NCBI GenBank assembly: GCA_965232875.1
Contig: OZ247431.1
Location: 2,744,376-2,808,375 of the forward strand
Source of the DNA: Dehalococcoidia bacterium
GTDB taxonomy: Bacteria; Chloroflexota; Dehalococcoidia; Bin125
Direction: 5' to 3'
DNA: 64,000 bases
Below are positions 9,644-46,945 of this stretch, piece after piece. Every line of letters begins with the position of its first letter. The stretch's first letter is position 1. Below the pieces are notes generated by a model that saw only the letters and a program-made list of their open reading frames with translations, searched no databases and had not been told where the DNA came from. Position numbers and translations under genes: made by a program.

Positions 9644-9659
9644 TCCGACACCCCCATTC

Positions 9660-11358: not shown

Positions 11359-11372
11359 GGTCGAACGTCCCA

Positions 11373-11393
11373 GTCCCCGCTTTACGCGGGGAC
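11373..11393 (+). terminator. GC-rich hairpin GTCCCCGC-ttta-GCGGGGAC after narK, followed by a pyrimidine-rich tract
   Basis: Read directly, 15 bp after the narK stop. The T-tract is weak (CTGCTCCTTCTCC). Confidence 0.4.
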
Positions 11394-11485
11394 CTGCTCC
11401 TTCTCCGCAAGGGACTACACCACCAGGTCGCACGTGTCGCCCGAGCAGGTCCCCGCGCAAAGGAGACCCTTGCAAAACTACGCTT

Positions 11486-11587
11486 TCCGTCATTGCCGCG
11501 CTCCGACGCGGCAATCTCGCAGCATTCAGCACAGACGTCTGTGCACGAATCAGCGAGATACCCGCGACAAGCGCGGGTATGACGGAG
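11486..11587. repeat. R2 two-hairpin repeat copy
   Basis: See 3672-3772; over 90% identity read directly. Confidence 0.8.
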
Positions 11588-11630
11588 TTGTTAGCGCGTG
11601 CTTGATTCATATCTGCCAGCGCTGGCGGAA

Positions 11631-31601: not shown

Positions 31602-31760
31602 CCGTCATTGCCGCGCTCCGACGCGGCAATCTCGCAGCATCCAGCACCAACGTCTGTGCTCGTATCAGCGAGATACCCGCGACAAGCGCGGGTATGACGG
31701 AGCTGCTCCCGCGGACTTGACTCTCTTTGCGGGGTCTCGGCAAGGGGGAGAAGGGGAGTT
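31602..31760. repeat. R2 two-hairpin repeat (31602-31702) followed by a degenerate R1 element (about 31723-31760)
   Basis: Read directly; over 90% identical to the copies at 3672 and 11486. Confidence 0.8.
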
Positions 31761-31870
31761 AGGCATCAGCCCCTCGCAACGAGACTTGCCCAACGCTGAG
31801 GTGTCCCGCTTCTCATCGGCGCAGCTCAGGAACGTCCATCCGCTGCTCGGCCGCGTCAAACGAGCACGCC

Positions 31871-33064
31871 CTAGGCCCGGTCAGAGCTGAACCGATCCCG
31901 ATCAGGTATCGCGTTGCCCCGAGTCAGCGGGGGCAAACCGAGCATGTGGCGGGATCCTGCGTCCCAGTTGAAATCGAGTCCCGCGTTGTGACGGCGCGCG
32001 ACTTGCAGATCGCGGAAGCGACGCTCAAGCGTCCAGCGTCGATGAATCGCATTGGTGCCCGCGGCCGGAAAGAGCATCTCGACCGCTTCGGTCGCAGCAT
32101 GGACGGCGTTCACATTGGCCAGACGCCATTGCGCGACGGCATCGAGGTCCGGATCGCCGGCAACGACCGACTCCCAGGCCCGAGAGCCCATCTCGCGAAC
32201 ATACGAGCGCGCCGAGCCAACCCGAGCCTGCGCTCGGCCAACCGCGACGCGGAAGTGCTCGCGGTCGGCAAGCGAGCGCGAGTCGCTCTTGCTGTCGACG
32301 TGCTTGGCAAACCGGACGACTTCGTCGATCGCACCCTGAGCTGCCCCGACCGCCTGCCCGCCATTCTGCAGCCAACTGGCGATACCACCGTCGGGAATTC
32401 GCCAATTCGGACCAGGAGCGACTGGTCTGGATCCGAACTTCATCGTCCGCTGATCGGCAGCAAAGACGTTCTCGTTGCGATAGTCGTGCGAGCCGGTGCC
32501 ACGCAGGCCCATGGTGTCCCAAGTGCGTAGGATTTCGCCCTGCTCCGGGTCGACGAACGACATGTACTGGTCGCTCGGATTCGCCTCATCTTTGAATGCA
32601 ATCACAACGTGAGTCGCATGATCGATACCGCTCGCGAAGGTCGAGATCCCGTTGACCAACCATCCGCCTTCAACTCGAGTGCCCAGATTGGTGGGACGGC
32701 TCGATCCGGCAATCCGACAACGCGGGCCGCCTGGCTCATCTGAACCAATCATCTCACGCAAGTGCTCGGTCTCCAGGAATCCGCTGACTAGCGAGAGTTC
32801 GGACGCCAACATCACGACCCAGCCGGTCGAGGGATCAGCGGCAGCCAGCGCCTCGATCGCATGGAACACGACCAGCGGCGGGACTTCCTCGCCTCCGGCG
32901 GCTTTGGGGATGAACAGTCGGTACAGCCCGGCGTCGGTGATGGTCTCAATCAGGTCGGGCGGCGGACTTCCGTTCGCCTCGGTTTCGTCCGCGCGCGCAG
33001 CGATCTGCGGTTGTAGCGCTCTCGCGCGTTCGACCATCGGGTGCTCGGCGGGATCAACTTGCAT
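31871..33064 (-). CDS. acyl-CoA dehydrogenase family protein (possibly DszC/SfnB-like flavin oxygenase type)
   Basis: 397 aa, ACAD three-domain layout. The C-terminal helical domain has the conserved R..N dyad. No substrate assignment is possible. Confidence 0.7.
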   Translation of the reverse strand: MQVDPAEHPMVERARALQPQIAARADETEANGSPPPDLIETITDAGLYRLFIPKAAGGEEVPPLVVFHAIEALAAADPSTGWVVMLASELSLVSGFLETEHLREMIGSDEPGGPRCRIAGSSRPTNLGTRVEGGWLVNGISTFASGIDHATHVVIAFKDEANPSDQYMSFVDPEQGEILRTWDTMGLRGTGSHDYRNENVFAADQRTMKFGSRPVAPGPNWRIPDGGIASWLQNGGQAVGAAQGAIDEVVRFAKHVDSKSDSRSLADREHFRVAVGRAQARVGSARSYVREMGSRAWESVVAGDPDLDAVAQWRLANVNAVHAATEAVEMLFPAAGTNAIHRRWTLERRFRDLQVARRHNAGLDFNWDAGSRHMLGLPPLTRGNAIPDRDRFSSDRA

Positions 33065-33133
33065 TGGAACAGGCTAGGGCTTGAACGCCAGCTATGGCTG
33101 CTGTTCAGCGGGCGGGGAAATCTGTGGCGGGCG

Positions 33134-33515
33134 ATGGTTAGCCAACCTTTTTTTCCTAGCCGAAAAAATGAATGGCGGCGACGATCTTCAGCGTACTGCT
33201 GAGGATCGTGTGGTTGGGGTGGTTGGAAGTGGTTAGGTTTGGACGGTTTTGGACGGTTTGGGTTGGACGGTTTTGTTCGGATTTGTTCGATCCTGGGGGG
33301 ATATGCGCGGGTGGGGACGAACGTGGAGGATCGGGGGTGGGTCTGTGCGGGGGGTTGGTGCGTGGTCATCGGGGTTGCTTTCGGAAGTGGGTTGTCGGCG
33401 GGGCGCGACCGATTATATCCGGACAGATGTTCTGTCAGGGTTGGCTGTGGGTGTCGGGAGTGACACGTTGGTTGAAGGGAGAACGGTCATACGGAATAGG
33501 GAGTGTCTTGGCAAC
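33134..33515 (+). repeat. long GT-rich direct repeat A1 (about 385 bp). Partner A2 at 37506-37896
   Basis: Shared blocks: TTTTTTCC-N-GCCGAAAAAATGRATTGGCGGCGACGATCT, TGTTGGGGTGGTTGGAAGTGGTTAGGTTTGGA, GGTGGTCATCGGGGTTGCTTTCGG..GTGGGTTGTCG and GGACRGATGTTCTGTCRGGGTTGGCTGTGGGTGTCGGGARTGACA. Roughly 75-80% identity overall. Strong G+T strand bias. ORF-track ORFs inside (33172-33534 and others) look non-coding. Confidence 0.8.
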
Positions 33516-33707
33516 CGCCGCCCGGGCAAAGTGATCTCGCGGTACGTCGGCTGGACCGAAATTTACCGCCCCGCCTCTAAGAAGAAGACCCAGCTCGGCT
33601 CGACGGGCATCCTGCGCGACCGCCGAGACACTGCCAACGCTGAACGCCTCAACCGCCGCCTCCAGTTGGCCAGCGCGCACTGAGCCAAGCGGAATTGACG
33701 GCTTCTG

Positions 33708-34232
33708 TTAGTCAGGAAGGCTCTGGCCAGTTCGCTCGAGCAAGGCGTCCCTCAGAACCACCCTCAGCACGTCGCGGACGCCTTCTTTGTTGATTCCGAA
33801 TTCGAAGGCACACTCGGCCATCTGTTGATCCATATGGCCGTCAAGGTTCTCTTTGGTGTAGCGCTCCGCGACGGCGTCGAGTTGGAATGGTTTCTCGCCA
33901 CCGGCCAGCGGCACGGTTGGAGCGACACTAGCGGCCCAAGCATGGGCATTGATCCAGGCTGACAGTTCCTCGCCGAACTCCGTAAGCCGCAACGGGCTTG
34001 AACCTGCTACAGGGACTGGCGGCATACGTCGAAGAATCTCCTTAATGTCGGCCCGCACCTCAGTCATGAACTCACGAAAATTGCCACGGTCGGTGTCCAC
34101 TTTGGATTGCCATCTGATGAAGGCCGCGAACATTGTGAGGATGAAAATTGCGCCGACGATGATCGGGGCCCACATCCAATCATCCAACGTGACAGCTAGG
34201 AACATGACAGACATCCTTCCTAGTCCCTGCAC
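33708..34232 (-). CDS. hypothetical membrane-anchored protein
   Basis: 174 aa. N-terminal TM (MSVMFLAVTLDDWMWAPIIVGAIFILTMFAAFI). No family recognised. Confidence 0.4.
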   Translation of the reverse strand: MQGLGRMSVMFLAVTLDDWMWAPIIVGAIFILTMFAAFIRWQSKVDTDRGNFREFMTEVRADIKEILRRMPPVPVAGSSPLRLTEFGEELSAWINAHAWAASVAPTVPLAGGEKPFQLDAVAERYTKENLDGHMDQQMAECAFEFGINKEGVRDVLRVVLRDALLERTGQSLPD

Positions 34233-34353
34233 GGATAGCGTACGCCTCAGCGACGCACACTGGTGGCACTGTGGATTGAGTCTCTCCTCAACGCAATGCT
34301 GACCACATGTTCTCTCAACCGTTTATCAGGACTGACGGCAAGATCTTCTTCGC

Positions 34354-35562
34354 CTAGCTCACCAACTGCAGCTTCGACTTTAGGTACTCCATCCCGCGGT
34401 TGCCCTTGATGCTGTTGCAGTGGCCGCAGAGGAGCTGGAGGTTCTGGATGTGGTCGGTACCGCCTTTGGACTGGGCGATGATGTGGTCGACTGTCAGGTG
34501 CTGGGGCTGGAAGTGTGTGCCGCAGCCGGCGCAGTCGCCGCCTTGCTGACCGTAGAGCTGCTGCTTGTTGGCGGCCGAGTTGTAGGCAGGCAGCGGCCCG
34601 AGGTCGGTGCGCTGGGGGATGTCCTCGCGGTGCACGATGTTGCGCCACAGGCCCTGGTCGGCCTCGACGCGCTCGACGACCAACTCGGCCGCCTTCGCTG
34701 ACAGGTCGATGCCGACCCAATGCCTGTCGATGCGGTCGGCGGCGACCAGCGTCGTCGCACAGCCGCAGAACGGGTCCAGCACCATGTCGCCCTCGTTCGA
34801 TGAGGCCCTGATGATGCGGTCAAGTAGAGCAAGTGGTTTCTGTGTTGGGTAGCCGACGCGCTCTTTGGCAGAGGGCATGATCGGCTGCATGACCCACCAA
34901 TCCTCAGGGTGCTTGCCCCTCTGGTTCGGCCTATAACCGCTGTACACCTTGTTGGTTCGGTACGATTTGTCATATCGGCTCGGTAGTGAGTCTGTGACTG
35001 AGTCCGAATAGGGAATCCTCACGTCGTCAACGTTGAACGTCGGATCGCTGAGGGAGTATCGCAAGATGACATCGTGCTTCCGTGCGAAGTCGCGTCGCGG
35101 CACTCCGCCGCCTCGGTAAGCCCAGATGATCTCATTGCGGAATCTGCGCCGCCCAAAGATCGCGTCCATGAGTAGCTTGAGGTAGTGGCTCATCGTTGGG
35201 TCGCAGTGCAGGTAGATGGAACCTGTGGGCTTGAGCAGGCGGGGCATCTCCAACAGGCGGGCCGCCATGTAGGCCAGGTAGGACTTGTCTGAGTCGGTCA
35301 TCGCGGCCAGCAATACTCGATGCACGGTGGGGTGCTTCTGCTCGATCAGGTTGATCCACTCGGCGTCGACGTCGGAGAGCGACCAAGTGTCCTTGAACGC
35401 GGCGCCGGCGGCGGCCGAGCCGATCGGCGCGGCGTAGTTGGCGTTCGAGTTGAACGGCGGATCGAGGTAGATCAGGTCGACGGTCTCGGAGTTCATGCCT
35501 CGCATGATTTCGAGGCAATCGCCCGTCCAGACCGTGTCGGAGGCGAAGTTTGGTGTTGCCAT
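34354..35562 (-). CDS. DNA methyltransferase (N6_N4_Mtase, beta-class, DPPF motif IV then FxGxG motif I) fused to C-terminal HNH endonuclease; copy 1
   Basis: LIYLDPPFNSNANY (motif IV), VLDPFCGCATT (motif I), C-terminal CAGCGTHF...DHIIAQSKGG...NLQLLCGHCN (zinc-finger HNH). Central residues about 150-240 differ completely from paralog 2. Confidence 0.85.
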   Translation of the reverse strand: MATPNFASDTVWTGDCLEIMRGMNSETVDLIYLDPPFNSNANYAAPIGSAAAGAAFKDTWSLSDVDAEWINLIEQKHPTVHRVLLAAMTDSDKSYLAYMAARLLEMPRLLKPTGSIYLHCDPTMSHYLKLLMDAIFGRRRFRNEIIWAYRGGGVPRRDFARKHDVILRYSLSDPTFNVDDVRIPYSDSVTDSLPSRYDKSYRTNKVYSGYRPNQRGKHPEDWWVMQPIMPSAKERVGYPTQKPLALLDRIIRASSNEGDMVLDPFCGCATTLVAADRIDRHWVGIDLSAKAAELVVERVEADQGLWRNIVHREDIPQRTDLGPLPAYNSAANKQQLYGQQGGDCAGCGTHFQPQHLTVDHIIAQSKGGTDHIQNLQLLCGHCNSIKGNRGMEYLKSKLQLVS

Positions 35563-36045
35563 AGGGGTTAGGCTATCGGGCGATGCTCTGGCGGGGCCGG
35601 AGAGGGAATCGGATTCTTTCCGCTGCTATTGCCAATTATCGAGCGCAGCACCCACAAGCGCCGCTGCGTCGCCGTCCGTCCCTCCACGCTGGTGTGCCAC
35701 ACCGGGGTTTGGACACGACGTTGGTTGGATCGGATACGCTGTCGGTGGAACCTGGGCAGGACTAGGGGGACGATAATGCTAATTATCGAGCACCTGCCCT
35801 TCCAGGACTCCAAGGGCGGGCGAGCGGACGTAGGTTGCGGTTGCGCCGTCCACTCGCCCTAGCGCGGGATCGTCTGTTACCGATTCCCGCGCTGCGCCCT
35901 ACCTTACCGACGCTCGCTGGCCCCACGCCACTTTCTTGACATGCCCACAGGCCGTTGACCCACTGAGCTGTCGTCGGCATACTTCCGGCTGCTCTGGGGA
36001 TGGCTGGTTGTTTGCTTGGTTCCAGTCGGTAGTCGTGGACTCGGC

Positions 36046-36102
36046 GAGATACCCCCGTTCAAGTCGGGGGCAGGCTCCGCGGCAAGCGCGGGTATGACGG
36101 AG
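36046..36102. repeat. partial R2 element (second hairpin) with an inserted CCCCCG-ttcaagt-CGGGGG hairpin, in the leader of MTase-HNH copy 1
   Basis: Read directly. The same GTAGTCGTNGNCTCGNCGAGATACCC context precedes copy 2 at 40500-40559. Confidence 0.7.
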
Positions 36103-36236
36103 GGAGAGGCAACATCCAGTAACTGCCGCGGTGCAGCCGCAGTTCTGCCGCAGTTCAGCCGTGGGGCACTCGCTACCAACTCTCTACGTTGAGGCGGGAA
36201 TAGACTCGAACGCAGAGACCTGTTGGTTCGCCGGGA

Positions 36237-37454
36237 GTGTTCGACTTGCCGCCTGCGTTCGTCTTCAACTGGCTGCACGAGGCCGTCATTGGGATTGAGG
36301 TCTGGCAGTTCGTCGGGCTGGGCGTGATGGCGGTGATCATCGTCGTCGCGCGGTTTGCGATTGTCTGGTCGCTCAACCTGGCCATCATGCGACGCACGGT
36401 TCCCGAGCGTCATGAGTTCTGGCGATTTGAGCTCAGTCGGCTGCAACGTCCGCTCTTGCTGATGCTGGGCGCTGTGACGCTGGCGATCGGTTTTCCCGTG
36501 CTTGACTTCGATTCCGATGTCGAGGATGTGGTCGCGATCTTCGCCAACTTCGCCTCGACCTTCGCCGGCGTACTGGTCGGCTTCCGCCTGGTCGACGCGG
36601 CCGCCGACTACTGGCGCGAGATTGCGCTGGAGACCGACTCCAAGCTCGACGATCAGTTGGTCCCGCTGGCGCGAACTACGGGCAAGATTTTCGTCGGGGC
36701 CATCGGCGCGATCTTCGTGCTGCAGAACCTCGACATCAACATTACGTCGCTGATCGCGGGGCTCGGCATCGGCGGCGTGGCCGTTGCGCTGGCGTCGCAG
36801 GACACGCTGAAGAACTTGCTGGGCGGCGCGACCATCCTGGCCGACAAGCCGTTCCAAGTTGGCGATTGGGTGATCGTCGGCGACATTGAGGGCACGGTCG
36901 AGCAGGTCGGATTCCGCTCGACCAGAGTGCGCACGTTTGCCGACTCGTTGATTACCGTGCCCAATGCGCGGATGACCGACACCGCTGTCAACAACATGGG
37001 ACAGCGCACCTGGCGGCGGTACTACACGACGGTCGGGCTTGCGTATCACACCGACCCGGACCGGATCCAGGCGTTCGTCGAGGGCGTGCGGGCGATTGTG
37101 CGCTCGAACTCGAACATGCGGCATGACTACTACATCGTCGAGTTGCATAGTTTCGGCGACTCGGGCTTGAACATCATGATCTACACGTTCATCGCGGCGT
37201 CGACGTGGAACGAGGAGCTGCGCACCAGGCACGTGTTCAACATCGACATCATCCGCCTGGCGCAGGAGCTGCAGGTCGAGTTCGCCTTCCCCACGCAGAC
37301 GCTGCACATCGCTAGTCAGCACCAGGGTCCCGAGCAGATTCCCCCGCCCAGAGATCGGGACGACCTGAGCAACACCATCGAAGACTTCGCCCCCGAGGGA
37401 TCGGCCGGCCAACGCCAAGACAACCCCATCACCGGCGGCTACGACAACGGCTAG
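36237..37454 (+). CDS. mscS: small-conductance mechanosensitive channel (MscS family)
   Basis: Three N-terminal TM helices followed by the conserved MscS core (LLGGATILADKPFQVGDWVIVGDIEGTVEQVGFRSTRVRTFADSLITVPN). Confidence 0.85.
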   Translation: MFDLPPAFVFNWLHEAVIGIEVWQFVGLGVMAVIIVVARFAIVWSLNLAIMRRTVPERHEFWRFELSRLQRPLLLMLGAVTLAIGFPVLDFDSDVEDVVAIFANFASTFAGVLVGFRLVDAAADYWREIALETDSKLDDQLVPLARTTGKIFVGAIGAIFVLQNLDINITSLIAGLGIGGVAVALASQDTLKNLLGGATILADKPFQVGDWVIVGDIEGTVEQVGFRSTRVRTFADSLITVPNARMTDTAVNNMGQRTWRRYYTTVGLAYHTDPDRIQAFVEGVRAIVRSNSNMRHDYYIVELHSFGDSGLNIMIYTFIAASTWNEELRTRHVFNIDIIRLAQELQVEFAFPTQTLHIASQHQGPEQIPPPRDRDDLSNTIEDFAPEGSAGQRQDNPITGGYDNG

Positions 37455-37505
37455 CGCGGAGCGCCGGAGTCGCCGTTGGCGGGAGCGGTCGCGTGAATTT
37501 CGGGC

Positions 37506-37896
37506 CGATGGGTGGTTGGTCAACTTTTTTTCCGGCCGAAAAAATGGATTGGCGGCGACGATCTCACGCGTATTGCTGGAGATCGTGCGTGTTGGGGTGG
37601 TTGGAAGTGGTTAGGTTTGGAAGATTTTGGAAGGTCTTGGTGTTCAGATTTGTCCAGGTTTGTCCAGGAACGTCTGGATTCGTCCAGCTTTCGGCGGTGT
37701 GATTCTGTGCGGCTCCAGGTTGATCCAGAGGATGTCGGGACGGGGTTGGTGGTCATGTCGGTCGCTTTCGGGTGTGGGTTGTCGATTGGGCGCGACTGAT
37801 TGTATGCGGACGGATGTTCTGTCGGGGTTGGCTGTGGGTGTCGGGAATGACAGTCGGTTCAGCGGAGTACTGTCAGAGGGAACAGGGAGTGTGTGA
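37506..37896 (+). repeat. long GT-rich direct repeat A2, partner of A1
   Basis: See A1. It ends at the start codon of the phosphotransferase gene. Confidence 0.8.
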
Positions 37897-38891
37897 TGTC
37901 CGACGCGACGGTGCCTTCCATCCAGGTCGATGGCTGGAACGATTGGATTCGGATCTACAACGACGCCTCGGTCTGGCGGCCGCTGATTGACGCGATCTGT
38001 GCGAGGGAGGGGATCGGCTATCGGCAACTGCGCGCTGCCAGTGCCAACACCAACGCCGTCTTCCTCCTGGACCGGGCCTACGCGCTCAAGATCCACAGCC
38101 CGTTCTGGGACGAGTTCGAGTTTGAGCGGACGCTGCTCGAAGCGCTCAACGATCATGAGGAGATCCCCGTATCCGATGTCTTGGGCTACGGATACATCGC
38201 GGACGGTGGAGGAGGCTCCTGGCCTTACCTGATAACTCGCTACTGCGAGGCGCGGCCTTTCTCGGAGATTCGCGGCGAACTCTCCGACGAGGACGCCAGG
38301 TCGCTGGCAGCGCAACTCGGCGGAATCGTGCGAGCGCTTCACGACCTGGATGCAGGGCAGTTGACCAGCGACACGACTGAGCGGGTCTGGACCGATGTCG
38401 TATCAGAGCGGCGGCGGAAGGCGCTCGCAGAACTGACCGAGGCCGGGGTCCTGGAAGACGGCCTCGTTGAGCCGCTTGAGTCCCTGTTGGACAAGGCGAT
38501 TGCGGCTGACGTCCCAGGGTCACGGATCGTCGTGCATGGAGACCTCGGCGCGGATCACGTGCTCTGCGCGCGGGTCGAGGGCGGTTGGACGATTGACATG
38601 CTGATCGATTTTGGGGATGCCAAGATCGGGGTGTTGGAGTATGAGTGGATGCCGGTCTGGATGGGGTTTTGCGGGCGCGATCCTGCTCTCGCTCGCGCTG
38701 TGCTCGAGGGATGTGGGCCGGGCTTGCTTGTTGACGGTGACTTCCCGACACGGGCGGTCGCCTGGACTCTGTTGCATGACTTCGGCGCCGATGAGCTGAT
38801 CAGCCAATGGCGAGAACGGGGTCAGCCGACGCCCATCGAGACGATGGAGGAGCTTGGAGCATTCCTCTGTCCAGCGTCGATCTTGCGATGA
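37893..38891 (+). CDS. aminoglycoside/choline-kinase-like phosphotransferase (APH family)
   Basis: Catalytic loop VVHGDLGADHVL (HGD motif) and IDFGDA (DFG). 332 aa. The start is either GTG 37893 or ATG 37896. Confidence 0.75.
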   Translation: MMSDATVPSIQVDGWNDWIRIYNDASVWRPLIDAICAREGIGYRQLRAASANTNAVFLLDRAYALKIHSPFWDEFEFERTLLEALNDHEEIPVSDVLGYGYIADGGGGSWPYLITRYCEARPFSEIRGELSDEDARSLAAQLGGIVRALHDLDAGQLTSDTTERVWTDVVSERRRKALAELTEAGVLEDGLVEPLESLLDKAIAADVPGSRIVVHGDLGADHVLCARVEGGWTIDMLIDFGDAKIGVLEYEWMPVWMGFCGRDPALARAVLEGCGPGLLVDGDFPTRAVAWTLLHDFGADELISQWRERGQPTPIETMEELGAFLCPASILR

Positions 38892-39103
38892 CTCAGGCCA
38901 GCCTCGCGATGGTGGTGATCTCGGGGCTGGTCTCAGTGAGCGGCTGGATGTGTTCTGCAGCATCGAGCAGTTGCCTGAGTCGATTTCGCGAGACGCTCTT
39001 TCAAGGCAGCCGCAATGACGACGGCGAGTTCGGTGACCATGGCAACACGGACAGCAGTTGAGCCGGCAAGCTGGCGAATCCCGTTAGTGAGCGCGTTTCA
39101 CAC

Positions 39104-40492
39104 TTAGGCCGTTGCCAGTTGCAGTTTCGACTTCAGGTACTCCATCCCGCGATCACCCTTGATGCTGTTGCAATGACCGCAGAGGAGCTGGAGGTTCTCG
39201 ATGTGGTCGGTGCCGCCCTTTGATTGGGCGATGATGTGGTCGACTGTCAGGTGCTGGGGCTGGAAGTGCGTGCCGCAGCCGGCGCAGTCGCCGCCCTGCT
39301 GACCGTATAGCTGCTGCTTGTTGGCGGCCGAGTTGTAGGTAGGCAGCGGCCCCAAGTCGGTGCGCTGGGGGATGTCCTTGCGGTGCACGATGTTGCGCCA
39401 CAAGCCCTGGTCGGCCTCGACACGCTGGACGATTAGCTCGGCTGCCTTGGCCGACAGGTCGATGCCGACCCAGTCGCGCTGCAGGCGGTCGGCGGCGACC
39501 AGCGTCGTCGCGCAGCCGCAGAACGGGTCAAGCACCATATCACCCTCGTTCGATGATGCCTTGATGATCCGTTCAAGCAGTGCGAGCGGCTTCTGTGTCG
39601 GATAGCCCATCCGCTCCTTGGCCTGTGCGCTTACCGGGTTGATATCGGTAATCACGTCGCCAGCCGCTCGTCCTTGTTGTTCATCAAGGTAGCGCTTCAG
39701 TCTTGGCCGTCGGTCCGTAGATGCCGGATACCAGATGCGCCCTTCGTCGTGGAGGCGCTGCATCGTTTCCCGCTCATAGCGCCAGCCCTTCTCCGGGGGC
39801 GGGAAGCCGCGCCAGGTGTAGGTCATGTTTGGTCTTGGGTTGGGGCTGGTCATATTGTCCAGCATGTAACGCCTGCCAGACTCATCGCTGTGGCGATAGA
39901 ACCGATTCACGTACTCCTCGTCGTGAGGTTCCCACGCTCCGTTCCAGGTCGCCTCCGAACCGCGAACGTAGTACAGCAGCGTGTCGTGGATTCGGCCATA
40001 TCGTCTGGCGTCAGATCGACTGCTCGTCCGTTTCCAAGAGATCTCATTCTTGAAGTTCCGACGTCCGAACACAGCGTCCATGAGCAACTTGAGGTAGTGG
40101 CTCATCGTTGGGTCGCAATGCAGGTAGATCGAGCCGGTCGGCTTGAGCAGGCGGGGCATCTCCAACAGCCGCGCCGCCATGTAGGCCAAGTAGCTTTTGT
40201 CCGAGTCTGTTAACGCTGCCAACAGCACGCGATGCACGGCAGGGTGCTTCTGCTCGATCAGGTTGATCCACTCGGCGTCGACGTCGGAGAGCGACCAGGT
40301 GTCCTTGAACGCGGCGCCGGCGGCGGCCGAGCCGATCGGCGCGGCGTAGTTGGCGTTCGAGTTGAACGGCGGGTCGAGATAGATCAGGTCGACGGTCTCG
40401 GAGTTCATGCCTCGCATGATTTCGAGGCAGTCGCCCGTCCAGATCGTGCCGGTGGCGAAGTTCTGCGAACTGCTGTGGGGGTTGCTGGTCAC
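39104..40492 (-). CDS. DNA methyltransferase (N6_N4_Mtase) fused to C-terminal HNH endonuclease; copy 2 with a different, longer central segment
   Basis: The N-terminal about 150 aa and C-terminal about 160 aa are over 90% identical to copy 1 at protein and DNA level. The central segment of about 140 aa is unrelated. The start was set at GTG about 40492 (MTSNPHSSSQNFATGTIW...); the ORF-track ORF extends to 40729 through a non-coding R2 repeat. Confidence 0.8.
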   Translation of the reverse strand: MTSNPHSSSQNFATGTIWTGDCLEIMRGMNSETVDLIYLDPPFNSNANYAAPIGSAAAGAAFKDTWSLSDVDAEWINLIEQKHPAVHRVLLAALTDSDKSYLAYMAARLLEMPRLLKPTGSIYLHCDPTMSHYLKLLMDAVFGRRNFKNEISWKRTSSRSDARRYGRIHDTLLYYVRGSEATWNGAWEPHDEEYVNRFYRHSDESGRRYMLDNMTSPNPRPNMTYTWRGFPPPEKGWRYERETMQRLHDEGRIWYPASTDRRPRLKRYLDEQQGRAAGDVITDINPVSAQAKERMGYPTQKPLALLERIIKASSNEGDMVLDPFCGCATTLVAADRLQRDWVGIDLSAKAAELIVQRVEADQGLWRNIVHRKDIPQRTDLGPLPTYNSAANKQQLYGQQGGDCAGCGTHFQPQHLTVDHIIAQSKGGTDHIENLQLLCGHCNSIKGDRGMEYLKSKLQLATA

Positions 40493-40526
40493 TTGTCCGG
40501 TTCCTGTTAGTAGTCGTCGTCTCGTC

Positions 40527-40559
40527 GAGATACCCGCGGCAAGCGCGGGTATGACGGAG
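40527..40559. repeat. partial R2 element (second hairpin) just upstream of MTase-HNH copy 2
   Basis: GAGATACCCGCGGCAAGCGCGGGTATGACGGAG read directly. Confidence 0.7.
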
Positions 40560-40613
40560 CGTGGGAGGAAAACGACGAGAAGACAGACCTTCCTGCCGAA
40601 CCTCGCTTTGAGG

Positions 40614-41363
40614 CTAGCCAGCAGCATCCGGAGCGGCGTCAGCCACGGACTGATGCGGTGGATCGGCGATGCGGGGCGGGGCGACCATCTTCTGCGCGTC
40701 CAGCAGCTTCTTGATGACCTCGAAGTCATCTTCGGTCAACGGCTTGACCGAAGTAAGGGTGAACGAATTCCCGTCGTACAGCGCACCCGAGATTGGTGGG
40801 GCAATAGTCGTGTCCCTACCAATACTGTTTGGCTCCTGTTGGGGTGCCACCGTCTCTGCTTTCTCTTCGGGGCTCGGAGCGGAGCTTCTGTGAGCCATTC
40901 TTGACGCCATGAAGCGCTCCGTCTCAAGATATACACGAGCGCACTTGGGCGCAGAGCTCGCGGTGAAATTCTGGCGCACCAGCCAAGCCTCCAGGCTCTT
41001 AGGTTGGGGCGTCTTGGAACCAGCGAATTGCTTGCGAATCCTCTGGAACAACGGAGGCGAGTCCGCAGCGCGCACCAAAGCTTCCCATTGTTCCTCTCCC
41101 TCCGCGAGGAGTATGTCCTTGGCAAGGTCGCTCACCCGATACGATCCTTGGCTGGGTGTATCGATCAGTGCATACTGCCTCAAGGTGGAGATCCACGCTA
41201 GAGCTGCCCCACCTCGGGGCGAGTCGTAGCCTGCCGCAGCCGCCAGCGCTGGCGCGTCGATCTCGATAGAACTGTGAGACTGGAACACTTCGTTGATCTT
41301 CGCGATCGAAGCCTCGAGGCTATGACTCGGGTGCTTTGGGCTGCGCGGTCTCTTGCTTGGCAT
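40614..41363 (-). CDS. hypothetical protein immediately upstream of (same strand as) MTase-HNH copy 2
   Basis: 249 aa, Pro/Ala-rich low-complexity stretches, no recognised domain. May or may not be real. Confidence 0.35.
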   Translation of the reverse strand: MPSKRPRSPKHPSHSLEASIAKINEVFQSHSSIEIDAPALAAAAGYDSPRGGAALAWISTLRQYALIDTPSQGSYRVSDLAKDILLAEGEEQWEALVRAADSPPLFQRIRKQFAGSKTPQPKSLEAWLVRQNFTASSAPKCARVYLETERFMASRMAHRSSAPSPEEKAETVAPQQEPNSIGRDTTIAPPISGALYDGNSFTLTSVKPLTEDDFEVIKKLLDAQKMVAPPRIADPPHQSVADAAPDAAG

Positions 41364-41717
41364 GTTGCTCTCCTTGTGCTTATGCCGTCCTGGATATTGT
41401 GCCTACAAGTTAGCCACAAGTTCAGGATCTTGTCAAGAGCACACGGGCGCAAATCAGAAAATCAGTCAGAAAGCAGGCTAGGTCGGCACAATCCACTACT
41501 CGTCACTATCCGCCGCGATGGGGGTCGGTCGTGGATCTCCAACGTTGCATTGGTGGGCCCTCGAAGACCGTGTTGCGAACTTTTTCTTGGGACGCGACTC
41601 TCTGACGGCCCTCGCCTGAGGACCGTTGCCTCACCGGCCGGGTAGGTACTCCCTGAAGCGAGCGTACACACGTAGTCGCCGATTGCGATGTGCGTCGGAG
41701 TGGCGTACATTGCCTGC

Positions 41718-41996
41718 ATGAAAACTGAGACCAAGGTGGAACGTTGGACAATCCGAGTCTCGCCGTCCGACGACATGATTGTCCGCAGAGTCGTGGCGGA
41801 GAGCGGAATGTCGCTCAGTGAGTACGTGGTTCGTCACACGGTGTCAGCCGCGACCGCAGACCTTGCGGACCGGCGCGTCTTCGCGCTGTCGGCAGAGTCC
41901 TGGTCAGAGCTTCAAAACCTCCTCGATCAGCCGGTGTCGCCCAAACCCCGGCTCCGCACGCTGCTTGCACAGCCCTCCATCTTGGAGTCCGAGTGA
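41718..41996 (+). CDS. tacA: DUF1778 (TacA-family, RHH) type II antitoxin
   Basis: ERWTIRVSPSDDMIVRRVVAESGMSLSEYVV...ADRRVFALSAESWSELQNLLDQPVSPKPRLRTLL matches the DUF1778 family pattern (RxxxFxLxxxxWxxFxxxLdxP....LrxLL). 4-bp overlap with the downstream GNAT stub. Confidence 0.7.
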   Translation: MKTETKVERWTIRVSPSDDMIVRRVVAESGMSLSEYVVRHTVSAATADLADRRVFALSAESWSELQNLLDQPVSPKPRLRTLLAQPSILESE

Positions 41997-42262
41997 GCGG
42001 CTACCGCGGGCCTGTACTCCTCACGCCAAACCATCTGCTGGATCGTTTCGACTGCGACGACGACGCGCCGGTGCTTACGATCTCGGGCGGTAGCGCGATT
42101 ACGGCCAGAAAGGCGGTTCGCTCCCGTTGTGCGGGTCGGCGCTCCGATGGTGGGGCGACGGTTCCTCAGTACAGATCGCCCGAAAGAAGCCGACTTTCCC
42201 TCCGCGTCGCTGCTACCTTGGGTGTCCTTGAACGCGATATCGGGTCCTTGGGTCTTGCTTGA
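41993..42262 (+). pseudogene. truncated GNAT-family (TacT-like) toxin gene; only about 30 N-terminal residues remain recognisable
   Basis: VLLTPNHLLDRFDCDDDAPVL resembles a TacT N-terminus (...H..s.FDCG...L). The remainder has no GNAT acetyl-CoA motif, and the ORF collides with the convergent CD-NTase gene. Confidence 0.4.
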
Positions 42263-43856
42263 ATCGCTTGATCTCTCCGAGATGGCAACGTTTGTACTTT
42301 CGTCCGCTGCCGCAAGCGCAGGGATCATTCCTCCTCAAACACTGCATGGCGATATCGGCAAGGGAAGACAGATACTGCTGGAAACCGAGCTCGCCATGGC
42401 CGTACTCGTCCCAGAGGTGCTGCCTGGCAGCCTGAATGCCGTATCGGTCGGTGTACCCCAATCGGTAGAAGAATGGGGTCACCATTTCATCCATAAACTC
42501 CCTGAGCGTCGTGCGACGGTCCGCCAACAGCTGAAGGCCCAGACAGCAAGAGCCGTCCCGATAGACGTGGAGATCGAAGCTGTCAATGCGTTCCCTTACA
42601 GCGATTCGCTCATGATCTCCGCCAACCTCGTAGACCTTCGGCCAACCATTCTGGTCAAAGGAGTCCAGGTCGATCCGGATCGAGAATGAGTCGCAGAGGA
42701 ACGTTTCCATTCTCTCGGTTGCATCGTCGCAGCCAATCAACAGCTTCCCTGCTTCCCCGTCGTACGCGGCACGCAACTCCAACTCACCTTCGATGAGCGC
42801 GGCCTCCGAGTCGCAACTGAGGCCGGGGAATTCCGAAGTCAACCACTCGAGCTCAACAGGGCTCAAGCTGAGCCGCCCTCGGGATGGAATGGCGCCCACA
42901 GCGGCATACGGCCTGCTCGGCGTGACTGTTCTCGGTGCCGTCTTCGCCACGGAGCGGTTTGCTGAGACAGCCACGCTGCCGAAGCCGTCCCCGAAGAGCG
43001 CCCGCCACTTTCTGACGCTCGACTGCTCGTCTTGGTCCTCGTATGCCTCCCTTACTCTCGTGGCATAGCTGGAGATCATGTCCCTGAAGCGGTCGTACTT
43101 GTCCTGATCCCAGTGCCGCGTGAAGGTCTCGCTTGGCAGAACGGGATTACGGATATCGGGCATGAATGGATGAGACTGGAGATATCTGTCGAGCCGTGTG
43201 ATCACGGTCAGCAGCGCATCGGGAATGGTCTTGAACTCTGTGTCGTCTTCCCAGTCGTAGACCGTGCTGCCAATCAGCATGGTGAGCAGGATCGACGGTG
43301 CCGTGAAGGTCTTCTTGTGGTCTCTCAGGTACTTCAGCAATCGCGTGACCAGCTTGAGATTGCCGTTGGTGATCCGGTTCTTCTGGTTGAACCAGTCGCG
43401 GTATCCGTTACCGTCCGTTGGCTCGAACCCGTTGGTCTTGCGGTTGCAGATGAAGTGGCTGCCGTTGAGGGTGATGCAGGGAACTAAGTCGATATTGAAA
43501 TCGTCCGCATAGTTGACGGTGATGCACCTAGTCTTCCTCTGAGCTTTGTCGGTATAGTTGCCGTTGTCCTTGAGACACTCGTACACGTCGTCGATGTAGT
43601 CCTTCGCTGACTTGGTTTCATCGAACTCCAAGTAAACGAGGCGGTCCACATCGAACTCGTCGCTGTCTTTGACCGGTCTGATCGTTGTGCGGAGGGCGTA
43701 TGAGCCTTGCCTCTCGGTCGTCTCGAACCCGACCAGATGCTGGGCCAGGTAATCGCTGACGGCCTTGTCGCTCCTCTTCAACCGCTCGTACCGAGTAGGG
43801 TTGAGATTCACGTGTCCGCTCATGAATTGACGGAAGTCGTCGACTCGCCTTGTCAT
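42213..43856 (-). CDS. CBASS cyclic oligonucleotide synthase (SMODS/CD-NTase-type nucleotidyltransferase) with about 250-aa unrecognised Cys-rich C-terminal extension ending in a SEC-C-like motif
   Basis: NTase signature GSYALRTTIRPVKDSDEFDVDRLV (GS...SDxDxxV) plus the downstream acidic residue in NYADDFNIDLVPC. 547 aa against a typical 300-400. C-terminal CACGSGRKYKRCH. 4-bp overlap with the patatin gene upstream. Confidence 0.7.
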   Translation of the reverse strand: MTRRVDDFRQFMSGHVNLNPTRYERLKRSDKAVSDYLAQHLVGFETTERQGSYALRTTIRPVKDSDEFDVDRLVYLEFDETKSAKDYIDDVYECLKDNGNYTDKAQRKTRCITVNYADDFNIDLVPCITLNGSHFICNRKTNGFEPTDGNGYRDWFNQKNRITNGNLKLVTRLLKYLRDHKKTFTAPSILLTMLIGSTVYDWEDDTEFKTIPDALLTVITRLDRYLQSHPFMPDIRNPVLPSETFTRHWDQDKYDRFRDMISSYATRVREAYEDQDEQSSVRKWRALFGDGFGSVAVSANRSVAKTAPRTVTPSRPYAAVGAIPSRGRLSLSPVELEWLTSEFPGLSCDSEAALIEGELELRAAYDGEAGKLLIGCDDATERMETFLCDSFSIRIDLDSFDQNGWPKVYEVGGDHERIAVRERIDSFDLHVYRDGSCCLGLQLLADRRTTLREFMDEMVTPFFYRLGYTDRYGIQAARQHLWDEYGHGELGFQQYLSSLADIAMQCLRRNDPCACGSGRKYKRCHLGEIKRFKQDPRTRYRVQGHPR

Positions 43857-44821
43857 TCGTTGTCCTCCAAACTGGTCAATATGGTCTCGCCGTACAGGCT
43901 GAAATCTCGGTTGGCTAGCGCTTTGAGGGTCTGCAGGTGCGTCGTGTCATCCAGCCTCCAGGACTGAATCTCTGGGTCGAGCCGTATGTGGCGATCGCCG
44001 AGCAGCAGCTTTGCCATGTTGGTTGACGCCTGAGACTGCAGGCCCAGCACGTAGCCGACCAGTTTTTCGCCGCCCCAGCCGGTCAGCAAGCCCCAGGATC
44101 TGCCCTCAGTGAAGAAACTGGCAGTGCGCCCGGTTCCGAGAGAAAGCACGCGTATCTGCCCGAGCGGTCGGCCGAATCTGGACAGCGCCTCCGTGACCGC
44201 AATGATCGTGGGGTTATTGGCCCAGAGTCCGCCATCTGCGAGGAGGTATTCGCCGACCTGCCTGGGGTCGAAGTATGCTGGCGCGGCGCAGGACGCCAAG
44301 ATTGCGTCTCTCAGTCGAACATCACCGTCCCGCAGGTAGGGACCGCCCAAGTCCTTCAGGTACCGAGACTTGAAGACATGCGCATTGCCGGTCGAAATGT
44401 CTGAGCTGGTGATCATCAGAGGGGTTGTGATTTCCCCCATGGTGACTGACGGCAGGTATTCGCCGATTGCATTGTGAAGGGGTTCAGTCGAATAGCGGCT
44501 GCGCAGAAAGGGAAAGCAGCTGAATCTCTTCGTCTTGAAAATGCGGTCGGCCTGACTCTCGAAGAGCTCGACGACAGTCCGCATCGGGATCTCTGTCGCT
44601 GCTGCGCCCGCCAATATCGATCCGGTGCTGGTTCCCGCGATAAGGTCGAAGCACTCACTCACGGGCGCCATGAGCGCGTCTTCCAGTTTCGCGAGTACGT
44701 GCGCGGCATACACCCCTCTGATGCCGCCCCCGTCTAACGCAAGAATGCTGAACGAGTCGTTGCGTCGCATCACGAGCCACTCGTTCTCCGATTCGCTGCC
44801 GGTAGCCGGCCGAGCATCCAC
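43853..44821 (-). CDS. capV: patatin-like phospholipase (CBASS effector CapV-like)
   Basis: LALDGGGIRG (oxyanion), GTSTGS (GxSxG nucleophile), DGG (catalytic Asp). Alternative starts GTG 44821 or ATG 44770. Confidence 0.85.
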   Translation of the reverse strand: MDARPATGSESENEWLVMRRNDSFSILALDGGGIRGVYAAHVLAKLEDALMAPVSECFDLIAGTSTGSILAGAAATEIPMRTVVELFESQADRIFKTKRFSCFPFLRSRYSTEPLHNAIGEYLPSVTMGEITTPLMITSSDISTGNAHVFKSRYLKDLGGPYLRDGDVRLRDAILASCAAPAYFDPRQVGEYLLADGGLWANNPTIIAVTEALSRFGRPLGQIRVLSLGTGRTASFFTEGRSWGLLTGWGGEKLVGYVLGLQSQASTNMAKLLLGDRHIRLDPEIQSWRLDDTTHLQTLKALANRDFSLYGETILTSLEDNE

Positions 44822-44908
44822 GAAGGATTTTCCTCTCGTCTACTCTGGGCAGATCGCGGCAAGAATCCGGTGATTCCGACATAATCCAGAAGATGGGCGG
44901 GCTCGATC

Positions 44909-44947
44909 GGTTTACACATGTTGAGAGTGTACCATGATTTGTAAACC
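44909..44947. promoter_or_regulatory. 8-bp inverted repeat GGTTTACA-N23-TGTAAACC in the capV / regulator divergent promoter, just upstream of the regulator RBS
   Basis: Read directly. A GGAGGAA RBS and the ATG at 44964 follow. Confidence 0.45.
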
Positions 44948-44963
44948 GAATGGAGGAACTCCA

Positions 44964-46016
44964 ATGTTCAGTGAACGTCTCAAGCTCGCCCGAAGACGCA
45001 GTGGCCTGTCGTTACGCGCACTGTCCTCGGTCGCAGGGGGCATCGTCTCGGCCCAAGCAATCGGCAAGTATGAGCGGGGAGAGATGATGCCGAGTTCGAC
45101 CGTGACGATCGCCCTCGCGGAAGCCCTCGACGTACCCGTGAGCTATCTCTTGAGTCCGACGAAAGTCTCTTTGAACTCGGTCGAGTTCAGAAGGCCGACC
45201 TCAATCAAGGTTCGGGAGAGCGCGTCAGTGGAGGCAGAGGTCCTCGATCAGGTGGATCGTTACTTGCAGGTCGAGGAGATCCTCGGGATTGACACCTCCC
45301 GGCACGACAACCCAGTTGGTGCTCCATTTCCGATCGCCTCCGTGGAAGAGGTGGAAGTGGCCGCCCAGCGTCTTCGCGACGCATGGAACCTTGGTGGCGG
45401 CCCGATCCCGGATATGCCTGAGCTGCTGGAGGAACGCGGCATTAAGGTGTTCAGGCTTGACCTGCCTGGATCGGTAGATGGCCTCAGTTGCCGAGTGCGT
45501 CAAGCGGACGGAGACGACATTCCTGCAGTGGTCTACTCGACGGGAACCTCCCTCGAACGAGAACGATTCACAATCGCGCACGAACTGGGTCACATGGTCA
45601 TGGATATCCCGTCCTCATTGGACAAGGAGCGAGCCTGTCAGCGCTTTGCCGGTGCGTTCATAGCGCCCGCAGAGGAGTTGGTTCGCGAGCTCGGACGCCA
45701 CCGGCACAACTTCGGATTCGCCGAGCTCATCGAGATCAAGCACATGTTCGGCATCAGCGCCGCCGCGCTCGTCATGCGGATGCGGGACCTGCGGATCATC
45801 ACGGACACCACCGTTAGCGCCATTTTCGACGGCATCGGAAGCAGTTGGAGAACAGATGAACCGGCGCCACTAAAGGAAGCCGAGAGCCATTCACGGTTCC
45901 GGCGCCTGTGTCTCAGAGCTCTTGCTGAGAATGAGATTTCTCAATCCAAGGCTTCGGAGCTGTTGAGGCTCAAAGTCAGCGAGATCGAGAAGATCATGGC
46001 TGGCTCGAACATCTAG
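44964..46016 (+). CDS. fused XRE-family HTH / ImmA-IrrE zinc metallopeptidase (CapH-CapP-like CBASS regulator)
   Basis: N-terminal HTH (RLKLARRRSGLSLRALSSVAGGIVSAQAIGKYERGE), HEXXH in FTIAHELGHMVMD. Divergent to the capV-NTase operon. The ORF track starts at 44934; the ATG with an RBS at 44964 is preferred. Confidence 0.8.
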   Translation: MFSERLKLARRRSGLSLRALSSVAGGIVSAQAIGKYERGEMMPSSTVTIALAEALDVPVSYLLSPTKVSLNSVEFRRPTSIKVRESASVEAEVLDQVDRYLQVEEILGIDTSRHDNPVGAPFPIASVEEVEVAAQRLRDAWNLGGGPIPDMPELLEERGIKVFRLDLPGSVDGLSCRVRQADGDDIPAVVYSTGTSLERERFTIAHELGHMVMDIPSSLDKERACQRFAGAFIAPAEELVRELGRHRHNFGFAELIEIKHMFGISAAALVMRMRDLRIITDTTVSAIFDGIGSSWRTDEPAPLKEAESHSRFRRLCLRALAENEISQSKASELLRLKVSEIEKIMAGSNI

Positions 46017-46024
46017 GCGAACCG

Positions 46025-46525
46025 ATGAAAGTCCTGGTCAGCGACAGTTCCATCTTGATTGAGTTCTCGAAGCGGGACATCTTGCACAAGATGTTCGAGC
46101 TGGAGTTTCAGTTTGCCGTGCCTGATCTGCTGTTCCACGAGGAACTGATTGACCTCGGTTCCTACAGCCGACAAGACCTGCTGGGTTTCGGACTGAGGGT
46201 GGAAGCGCTGGGTGCGGACGGCGTGGCGATGGCCGTTGGCTACCAAGCAGAACGAGCGGCACTCAGCCTGGTAGACGCATTTGCGCTCGCGCTTGCCGGA
46301 ACTCATGGATGGCGCATCCTGACCGAAGACAGGACCATGCGTCGCTTCGCAGAGACTAAGAGCATTGCGCACTTGGACGCGCTCTGGGTCTTCGACAGGA
46401 TGCTTGACACGAGTGTGCTATCTGGTCCTCAAGCCTTGGTTGTGTTGGAAGCGATGCTCAACGATCCAAGATGTCCTGTGCCCAACCCTGAACTAGCCAG
46501 CCGCATTGAGACTCTTCGAGATTGA
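46025..46525 (+). CDS. PIN-like domain protein (DUF4411-like partner of ImmA/IrrE regulators)
   Basis: N-terminal MKVLVSDSSILIEF (PIN-like acidic residue in a beta-strand). 166 aa. 9 bp downstream of the regulator stop. The DUF4411 assignment is from memory of the family pattern, not an alignment. Confidence 0.45.
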   Translation: MKVLVSDSSILIEFSKRDILHKMFELEFQFAVPDLLFHEELIDLGSYSRQDLLGFGLRVEALGADGVAMAVGYQAERAALSLVDAFALALAGTHGWRILTEDRTMRRFAETKSIAHLDALWVFDRMLDTSVLSGPQALVVLEAMLNDPRCPVPNPELASRIETLRD

Positions 46526-46945
46526 GTTGCTAGAGCGCGATCGAAGCGCGCAAGAGGATGTTGCGAAATAATCTCCGAGCCGTTGCCCCTAACGCGGAAG
46601 ATGACCGAGGAGCCATTTGGTTGGAATCAGGCTGCTTTACAGGGCATCGCTCGCTCGCGGGTTGCTCGCCACATCGCTTGCGCCGCTCAACACACCTCCC
46701 CACCAAACTGGACAAAATCAAGAACCTTCGAGATTCGATTCGCGCTGGAACGTTGATTCGCTGCCGACGTCAGGTCCCCAGATTCGTCCGGATCAGGCTC
46801 CGGTGCTCCTGGCACACGATTACGCAGCGTCGCAATACCGCCATTTGGGCGACCCAAGAGCGCAAGGCCCTGAGTGCTTCTTCGAAGTCTCGATTTAGCC
46901 TTTCAAGAGGTTCTCGTCCGAAGAACATCGAAGAAGAGGCGCCGG

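Follow-up and report, generated by a model that had tools for sequence, protein, structure and literature searches.

Two paralogous genes in a 64,000-nucleotide (nt) stretch of a Dehalococcoidia bacterium (contig OZ247431.1, positions 2,744,376 to 2,808,375 of the forward strand; hereafter the window) each encode a DNA methyltransferase that continues at its C-terminus into an HNH nuclease domain. We refer to them as gene A and gene B. Both are members of a large family of solitary enzymes that consist of a single polypeptide, a beta-class, probably N6-adenine, methyltransferase joined to HNH. We consider it about as likely as not that A and B are mobile and self-contained enzymes of a restriction-modification-like kind, in which HNH would act as the nuclease and whose specificity would diversify through recombination in the conserved flanks of an exchangeable centre. 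Coordinates of all features are collected in Table 1.

Each of the two genes is one open reading frame (ORF). In Pfam searches gene A matches PF01555 with E 1.8e-46 and PF01844 HNH with E 1.4e-13, and gene B matches the same two families with E 1.3e-43 and about 1e-13. The PF01555 scores of 159 (A) and 150 bits (B) stand against a gathering cut-off of 26.7, and the HNH score of 51 bits against one of 21.4. Database proteins identical to both products exist (P0001 for A and P0029, of 462 amino acids (aa), for B). A longer, ATG-initiated ORF of gene B that reaches position 40729 is not backed by homologues, and the GTG start is preferred. The order of motifs that defines the beta class (IV ... 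VIII, recognition region, X, I) is found in both proteins. In protein A, DPPF occupies residues 34-37, NEIIW 143-147, YPTQKP 238-243 and DPFCGCATT 263-271, and B has the equivalents. A linker of about 45 aa then leads to the HNH core, CAGCG...VDHI...NLQLLCGHCN in both genes. DPPF together with the best family matches suggests N6-adenine methylation; the catalytic, zinc-binding and nuclease roles of the motifs in A and B are predicted from sequence and models. A and B come out positive in every sequence and fold test of beta-class methyltransferases and HNH nucleases, and they are real single-polypeptide fusions, not an artefact.

The two proteins align from end to end with 69% identity and the gaps are confined to the middle. 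At the nucleotide level (blastn), the similarity falls into an N block of 389 nt with 92.0% identity (E 9e-159) and a C block of 505 nt with 89.5% identity (E 0), both repeated in direct orientation with a start-to-start distance of 4753-4912 nt. The two blocks enclose the centre, which measures 292 nt (97 aa) in gene A and 451 nt (150 aa) in gene B. The two centres have no nucleotide match to each other in blastn, and no match is found by BLASTP of the centres alone. In a codon alignment they are about 43% identical, beside flanks of 88-90%. An earlier note, made from the letters of the window, had described two methyltransferase-HNH genes with highly similar flanks and swapped centres, lying as direct repeats about 4.7 kb apart, and Pfam and blastn bear out this description. 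Its figure of more than 90% nucleotide identity for the flanks holds for the N block and is slightly too high for the C block; the sizes of about 90 and 140 aa that it gave for the centres are in the right order, if a little short. It had further called the centres unrelated, which stands as far as direct matches go and fails at the level of profiles.

When an alignment of short-type centres (about 95 aa, as in A) was compared with an alignment of long-type centres (143-175 aa, as in B), hhalign returned a probability of 98%, E 3e-13 and 27% identity over 94 columns. The two types align over the first ~55 aa, with motif VIII (NEIxW...HDxxLxY), and over the last ~30 aa, and the long type carries an insertion of ~50-75 aa relative to the short one. 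The centres of A and B are thus anciently related, yet they are different structural classes of recognition module. The AlphaFold2 model of A (mean predicted local distance difference test score, pLDDT, 80.9; predicted template modelling score, pTM, 0.83) has its nearest PDB folds in M.BceJIV, M.RsrI and M.MboIIA (Foldseek E 1e-18 to M.BceJIV and RsrI). The model of B (pLDDT 74.6, with the centre at 88-96) is nearest to the EcoP15I Mod subunit 4zcf (Foldseek E 8e-20). As modelled, A and B carry structurally different recognition modules. The variable centre, which the earlier note took for the recognition region because it lies between motifs IV and I, is located more closely between motifs VIII and X, the predicted place of target recognition.

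Comparison with other genomes reveals mosaic proteins. Those with flanks near A (N block at least 92%, C-terminal methyltransferase part at least 87% aa identity) contain centres of 95, 143-148, 162, 167 or 173 aa. The flanks of B are 98, 93 and 96% identical to those of P0018, but the centre only 33%; the centre of B has its close counterpart in P0048, a protein from a metagenome-assembled genome (MAG) of Chloroflexota, with 94.6% aa and 88.7% nt identity. For the centre of A, the close counterpart is P0002 of contig L001, 87% identical in nucleotides although the loci differ, so cassettes move between loci too. Two comparisons at orthologous positions, where the centres have been replaced, are decisive. 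Contig L085 is collinear with window positions 31864-38914 at 90-93% nt identity, through an acyl-CoA dehydrogenase gene, the repeat A described below, the methyltransferase-HNH gene, its spacer and leader relic, mscS and the APH-family gene; where A has a 95-aa short-type centre, the gene of L085 has a 145-aa long-type one. Contigs L086 and L001 have the ffh-rpsP-rimM-tRNA-Ala ... tmk locus in common (91-96% nt), with centres of 162 vs 96 aa, and the cargo downstream of their methyltransferase-HNH genes differs as well.

Tandem arrays provide another example. Contig L070 (Flammeovirgaceae MAG, 8430-14350) harbors four tandem methyltransferase-HNH genes with three centre types. The flanks of copies 2-4 are 98-99% identical, copy 1, measured for its C-terminal 540 nt only, reaches 97.6-98.1%, and the three spacers between the genes hardly differ. 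Three tandem genes with differing short centres are found on L030 (Bacteroidia contig, 27-3738). Within the family, the centre comes in at least six cassette types on a highly conserved N- and C-terminal scaffold. Taken together, these comparisons demonstrate an exchange of cassettes by recombination in the conserved flanks, both among alleles at one locus and among loci. Specificity diversification, which the earlier note could only suggest from two copies, is now strongly backed by allelic replacement of centres at orthologous loci and by the tandem arrays, and comparative support for cassette exchange as its probable route is good.

The history of the pair itself is a different matter. The flanks of A and B share 88-90% of nucleotides and 91-96% of amino acids, but only 76-79% of third codon positions. 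An amino acid identity so far above the third-position identity indicates purifying selection on the flanks. Because the third-position identity equals the level between orthologues of different genomes, the A/B pair is not a recent local duplication, and it likewise indicates that the two copies have undergone no recent homogenisation. The longest runs of perfect identity (74, 56 and 50 nt in the N block; 44 and 31 nt in the C block) are still long enough to make homologous recombination between A and B feasible, as the earlier note had supposed. The two direct repeats of 0.4-0.5 kb could plausibly serve as substrates for more chimeras or for deletion of mscS and the APH-family gene. Devices of programmed switching were not found: there are no inverted repeats for shufflon-type switching (as in type I hsdS) in 32000-43000, where the A/B repeats are direct, no site-specific recombinase among the neighbouring ORFs scanned, and simple-sequence repeats that could serve phase variation were not seen either.

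The fused architecture of PF01555 and HNH is present in 118 of the 120 best database relatives of A. A query made of the linker and HNH retrieves 765 clusters at 50% identity (E<=1e-10), and GTDB species genomes, with one genome per species, contain at least 588 loci; our figures on neighbourhood and distribution refer to the best 80 of these. A strict single-frame pattern from N block to HNH is matched by 78 of 90 copies in related loci. With the single ORFs of the window, this agrees with the earlier note in that HNH is fused and not a separate overlapping ORF. Five of the 12 non-matching copies are still full-length ORFs and about seven are truncated, which leaves ~83 full-length copies overall. 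DPPF is kept in 88 of the 90, and in alignments of 30, 98 and 52 members the columns of DPPF, DPFCGCATT, CxxC, DH, N and CxxCN are invariant.

Many phyla contribute MAGs to the best 80 loci, among them Poribacteria, Chloroflexota and Dehalococcoidia, Acidobacteriota and Acidimicrobiia, as well as Alpha- and Gammaproteobacteria, Gemmatimonadota, Bacteroidota, Cyanobacteria and Spirochaetia. Across these phyla the family retains 42-74% aa identity to A, which implies horizontal spread. To judge from record titles (Poribacteria, Poriferihabitaceae, Porisulfidus, isolate codes of sponge studies), its members are mostly from sponge-symbiont MAGs. The genome apparently has a third paralogue outside the window, P0061, since this protein and those of A and B are all recorded on a contig of 3,327,587 nt. 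Collections of cultured phages and plasmids and IMG/VR yield almost solely methyltransferase-only relatives, with three full-length matches among the best 80 of 421 relatives in IMG/VR, and an origin from phages or plasmids is therefore unsupported.

Some relatives are incomplete. In L080 (~10709-10915) and L081 (~10697-10908) a frame change occurs at the linker between methyltransferase and HNH, at an identical position in both; it may stem from an error of assembly or from decay by which the nuclease becomes uncoupled. Among P0278-P0396 are many short ORFs (93-193 aa, some of them on megabase contigs) that consist solely of C-terminal methyltransferase motifs with HNH, or of HNH alone. These may be remnants of genes, copies with a frameshift or partial cassettes.

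Apart from an IS1595-family transposase (PF12762 + PF12760), no conserved partner gene was found in the 80 loci. This sole recurrent neighbour is present in 18 of them, 6-620 nt from the methyltransferase-HNH gene, and the transposases are only 33-41% identical to the copy of L003 that was used as query. In seven loci, terminal inverted repeats of 18-38 nt, with GGG(G)A(A)TTAT as their start, enclose the methyltransferase-HNH gene together with the transposase gene; in no case do they enclose only the latter. Six of the seven units (L006, L023, L032, L053, L064, L081) are flanked by perfect 8-bp target-site duplications; that of L031 is ambiguous. Judging by these ends, the methyltransferase-HNH gene in the seven loci is a passenger of an active-looking IS1595 transposon of 2.4-2.9 kb. 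These relatives of A and B resemble IS1595 insertion sequences with passengers in size, DDE transposase, terminal inverted repeats and 8-bp duplications, whereas the window copies differ in having neither transposase nor terminal repeats. Direct repeats derived from a tRNA, which would bound a unit at the tRNA-Ala locus, were looked for and none was present.

We suggest the following mode of action. The methyltransferase with its recognition module, probably a dimer as other beta-class enzymes are, would read a short motif and methylate the host chromosome. On incoming DNA that is unmethylated, the tethered HNH would cut at or near the bound site, being targeted there by methyltransferase and recognition module. 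One module would then set protection and restriction alike, which is the principle of type IIG, type I and type III systems and accounts for the shuffling of recognition domains there. Because a single module sets both activities, a swap of the centre would be tolerated and would result in a new specificity in one step. The short, RsrI/BceJIV-like centre of A and the long, type III Mod-like centre of B would provide the genome with two different specificities.

Several known systems share part of this scheme. Enzymes of type IIG/IIC (MmeI family, Eco57I, BcgI) likewise combine nuclease and methyltransferase in one chain encoded by a solitary gene, one module sets both of their activities, and a change of module alters specificity in one step, which for the methyltransferase-HNH family would follow from sequence comparison. 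A and B agree with them in the one-polypeptide organisation, as single ORFs with no conserved partner in the 80 loci. They depart from the IIG/IIC layout, which consists of an N-terminal PD-(D/E)xK nuclease, a gamma-class methyltransferase and a C-terminal recognition domain, by their beta-class methyltransferase, internal recognition region and C-terminal HNH. Mod subunits of type III systems (EcoP15I Mod; the phase-variable modA of Haemophilus and Neisseria) are similar in being beta-class, with constant N- and C-terminal parts and a central recognition region that is swapped between alleles by recombination. A and B differ from them by a small fused HNH in place of an adjacent Res helicase-nuclease gene. 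No Res gene is found near A and B, whose neighbours are ORF174, mscS, the APH-family gene and ORF249; a Res-like neighbour recurs in none of the 80 loci, and the only ResIII-like helicase in the window (59888-62251) is ~20 kb off.

M.RsrI, M.MboIIA and M.BceJIV are the best structural and sequence matches of the methyltransferase part of A and have the same motif order with DPPF/Y. They are, in contrast, stand-alone proteins of 230-320 aa, with a separate nuclease gene or orphan, and none has a fused HNH. As to orphan enzymes, A and B score 81-85 bits with the CcrM model and 103-111 bits with PRK11524, far below the NCBIfam equivalog cut-offs of 830 and 292. The nuclease end resembles KpnI, McrA, SRA-HNH and EVE-HNH, which share the beta-beta-alpha-metal nuclease with its CxxC...CxxC zinc site and its position as a C-terminal cleavage module on a DNA-targeting domain. 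In those proteins the targeting is done by a non-catalytic reader or an own binding domain, in A and B it would be done by a methyltransferase that appears catalytically intact.

Several considerations weigh against A and B as mobile restriction-modification-like enzymes. Their nuclease activity and its dependence on methylation state we infer. We know of no characterised precedent for a beta-methyltransferase-HNH layout; enzymes of the MmeI, BcgI and Eco57I types use PD-(D/E)xK nucleases and gamma-class methyltransferases, and PADLOC recognises the methyltransferase part only. In motif I of both A and B, Ala replaces the second Gly (FCGCA). On arrival in a naive genome, a fused enzyme would be expected to harm its host unless methylation wins over cleavage; the family nevertheless passes freely between phyla. 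Further, the window copies lack a transposase relic, terminal repeats and target duplications, so their own mobility is unsupported, and, their flanks being about as diverged as those of orthologues, nothing points to exchange still going on between these particular two copies.

The main rival explanation avoids the problem of toxicity on arrival in a new host. It assumes an orphan methyltransferase with a regulatory or protective role, and an HNH that serves the spread or retention of the element through homing-like or transposon-retention breaks, which would drive gene conversion or restoration of IS1595. The occurrence as a passenger in IS1595 units with target duplications is in line with this, as is the distribution across phyla; the near-identical flanks within arrays suggest frequent gene conversion, and the HNH subtype is nearest to the HNH domains of IscB, Cas9 and group II introns. 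On the other hand, mobility is already supplied by the DDE transposase, the window copies and many others stay intact without it, and the flanks of A and B are not homogenised. Diversification of recognition cassettes is predicted by frequency-dependent selection on restriction specificity and is not needed for homing. We judge this explanation unlikely. Less likely again is a role of HNH as a methyltransferase-guided nickase or toxin, either in abortive infection when methylation fails or in strand marking for repair or replication. Gene B does lie in a defence-island context and many stand-alone HNH proteins are nickases, but no sensor or regulator partner is conserved and some copies reside in housekeeping contexts, for example beside rimM and tRNA-Ala.

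Two further possibilities are hard to reconcile with the data. The methyltransferase-like domain might merely read modified bases, A and B being modification-dependent nucleases similar to type IV enzymes, as the earlier note had considered. Many HNH restriction enzymes are indeed fused to modification readers, e.g. SRA-HNH, EVE-HNH and McrA (PMC6765204, PMC12707154). The catalytic DPPF and the S-adenosylmethionine-binding motif of the family are, however, intact and invariant. It would be suicidal for an active methyltransferase to mark the very genome that its own nuclease would then attack, and with DPPF kept in 88 of 90 copies the host genome would be methylated; we hold this very improbable. 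Hardly any weight is left for a plain local duplication followed by rapid divergence of the centres in place, with no cassette exchange. The direct orientation at a distance of 4.7 kb and the distant common framework of the centres might be taken to speak for it. However, the centres, at ~43% nt identity and with no blastn match, cannot have diverged in place beside ~90% identical flanks. Each of them has close kin in other genomes (87% nt for A; 94.6% aa for B), and orthologous loci contain different centres. The surroundings of the genes are not duplicated save the displaced leader and repeat A, and L085, the syntenic relative, has no gene B. The comparative data thus refute divergence in place after a duplication.

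If HNH cuts where the methyltransferase reads, then A and B would represent a new and very compact restriction-modification architecture. Natural cassette swaps would show how both activities can be re-targeted together, which would help in finding and engineering enzymes. The family would also be a natural case, apart from the classical systems of types I and III, in which specificity diversifies by recombination of paralogues and alleles, and its carriage by IS1595 clearly marks gene flow across phyla. In the literature searched, neither a beta-methyltransferase-HNH fusion nor its role as an IS1595 passenger was found to be described. PF01555 and PF01844 were both reported to be enriched in sponge metagenomes (PMC12284385), and restriction-modification genes to be laterally transferred among sponge symbionts (PMC8163846). 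Both reports fit our family, which may be the concrete gene behind that enrichment of DNA methylase and HNH in sponge microbiomes.

A more far-reaching proposal can be offered tentatively, and we ourselves regard it as doubtful. The family would form an unrecognised class of minimal, transposon-borne, one-protein restriction-modification (or selfish epigenetic-nuclease) modules, reprogrammed in specificity by the swap of a 95-175-aa cassette and distributed by IS1595 across phyla in sponge holobionts, where it may explain the enrichment of PF01555 and PF01844. In the boldest form of this proposal, HNH would be a protein-guided, TnpB/IscB-like retention nuclease for the transposon.

Table 1. 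Features of the methyltransferase-HNH locus and its surroundings; positions are those of the window unless a contig is named
Feature	Position	Strand	Description
Gene A	34354..35562	(-)	402 aa, ATG start; beta-class N6_N4 DNA methyltransferase with C-terminal HNH nuclease, short-type centre
Conserved N block of A	35162..35550	(-)	motif IV DPPF 35452-35463, through motifs V-VII
Centre of A	34870..35161	(-)	motif VIII NEIIW 35122-35136 and short target-recognition module (predicted), 97 aa
Conserved C block of A	34367..34869	(-)	motif X 34834-34851; motif I DPFCGCATT 34750-34776; linker; HNH core CxGCG...DH...N...CGHCN 34414-34533
Gene B	39104..40492	(-)	462 aa, GTG start; paralogous methyltransferase-HNH fusion, long-type centre
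Conserved N block of B	40074..40462	(-)	DPPF 40364-40375
Centre of B	39623..40073	(-)	motif VIII NEISW 40034-40048 and long target-recognition module (predicted), 150 aa
Conserved C block of B	39120..39622	(-)	motif X 39587-39604; motif I 39503-39529; HNH core 39167-39286
Leader of B	40493..40568	(-)	hairpin with 9-bp stem ~40530-40552, preceded by CCGTC, then conserved 38-nt 5' leader
Displaced (relic) leader of A	35989..36102	(-)	hairpin split by 22-nt insert, plus ~7 codons; 427 nt upstream of the ATG of A
Spacer between relic leader and gene A	35563..35988	(-)	426 nt; single copy in window; conserved in L085
REP-like palindrome	3674-3771, 11488-11585, 31603-31700	(-)	~100 nt, one long hairpin, -65.5 kcal/mol, z -8.4
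Variable ORF	33708..34232	(-)	174 aa, no family match, directly downstream of A; unrelated 186-aa ORF in L085
Repeat A1	33128..33471	(-)	~340 nt, downstream of A past the variable ORF
Repeat A2	37485..37854	(-)	downstream of B past the APH-family gene
mscS-type mechanosensitive channel gene	36237..37454	(+)	Pfam MS_channel domains; between A and B
APH-family phosphotransferase gene	37893..38891	(+)	Pfam PF01636; between A and B
Defence island beside gene B	41688-49240		absent from syntenic L085
TacA-type antitoxin	41688-41996		followed by a short ORF
CBASS (cyclic oligonucleotide-based antiphage signalling system) cyclase	42213-43856		with C-terminal E2-like and SEC-C region
Patatin effector (CBASS)	43853-44821
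RmrA-like HTH-M78 gene	44934-46016
PIN gene	46025-46525		with the RmrA-like gene
PDC-S06 AAA_13 gene	46874-49240
IS1595 units with methyltransferase-HNH passenger	L006, L023, L031, L032, L053, L064, L081		2.4-2.9 kb; e.g. L053 8878-11493, L023 9660-12266

The region upstream of the two genes is only partly shared. The hairpin upstream of B has a folding energy of -17.2 kcal/mol (z -3.8), and a leader of the B type is kept upstream of homologues in L001 and L086. The relic leader of A matches the leader of B over 26 nt at 100% and over 82 nt at 75.6% (blastn), and its displaced arrangement is also found in L085. In the earlier note both copies were preceded by the same hairpin leader, from which it followed that the duplication included upstream sequence. 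A homologous leader does exist at both copies, but it is directly upstream of B only (40530-40568). The statement on the duplication is likewise right only in part, as the leader of A is displaced by a spacer that L085 also contains. The spacer was considered as a recent mobile insert and rejected, because no other copy occurs in the window or the loci examined and because of its conservation in L085. The leader hairpin corresponds to the left arm of a palindrome similar to repetitive extragenic palindromic (REP) sequences. Because this palindrome occurs at three unrelated intergenic sites of the window, the hairpin is not specific to A and B. A variant with a 22-nt insert is present in L001 (920-977). 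Insertion of A and B into a REP-like palindrome was dropped as an explanation, since the right half of the palindrome is missing downstream of both genes.

A further repeated element, repeat A, is found behind each methyltransferase-HNH gene of the window and of three related contigs, with a variable cargo segment in between. Its homologues downstream of such genes are located at 11846-12150 in L001, at 8547-8895 in L086, and at 8140-8503 and 3700-4079 in L085. The repeat contains a possible small ORF (MTTHQPP...), ends with a hairpin and a T-run, and has no match in Rfam; a scan of the whole window with Rfam gave no matches either, and promoter and terminator scans of the window remained at or below chance. 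The variable ORF downstream of A was examined as a conserved partner of this gene and rejected, having no family matches, no likeness to the ORF of L085 at that position and no homologue in the related loci examined. The interval from A to B thus holds the 426-nt spacer, the leader relic, mscS, the ~340-nt repeat A2 and the APH-family gene.

Synteny with L085 stops 23 nt past the stop codon of the APH-family gene. Gene B and everything to its right (window 38915-64000) have no counterpart at this position on L085 (1-2680), and this points to a variable region that spans 25 kb or more from gene B rightward. Gene B is located at the edge of a defence island. On the far side of the island, a 514-aa ORF (49275-50819, minus strand) contains only the finger, HhH and OB domains of DNA polymerase III alpha, without PHP and palm, and may be a split or truncated dnaE-like gene. 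Left of gene A, at 11631-18112 on the minus strand, lie two large genes for UvrD-like helicases and PD-(D/E)xK nucleases (AddAB/AdnAB-like). Finally, positions 52343-59755 are occupied by an ORF of 2470 aa rich in fibronectin type III repeats; proteins of this type are reported to be enriched in sponge symbionts.

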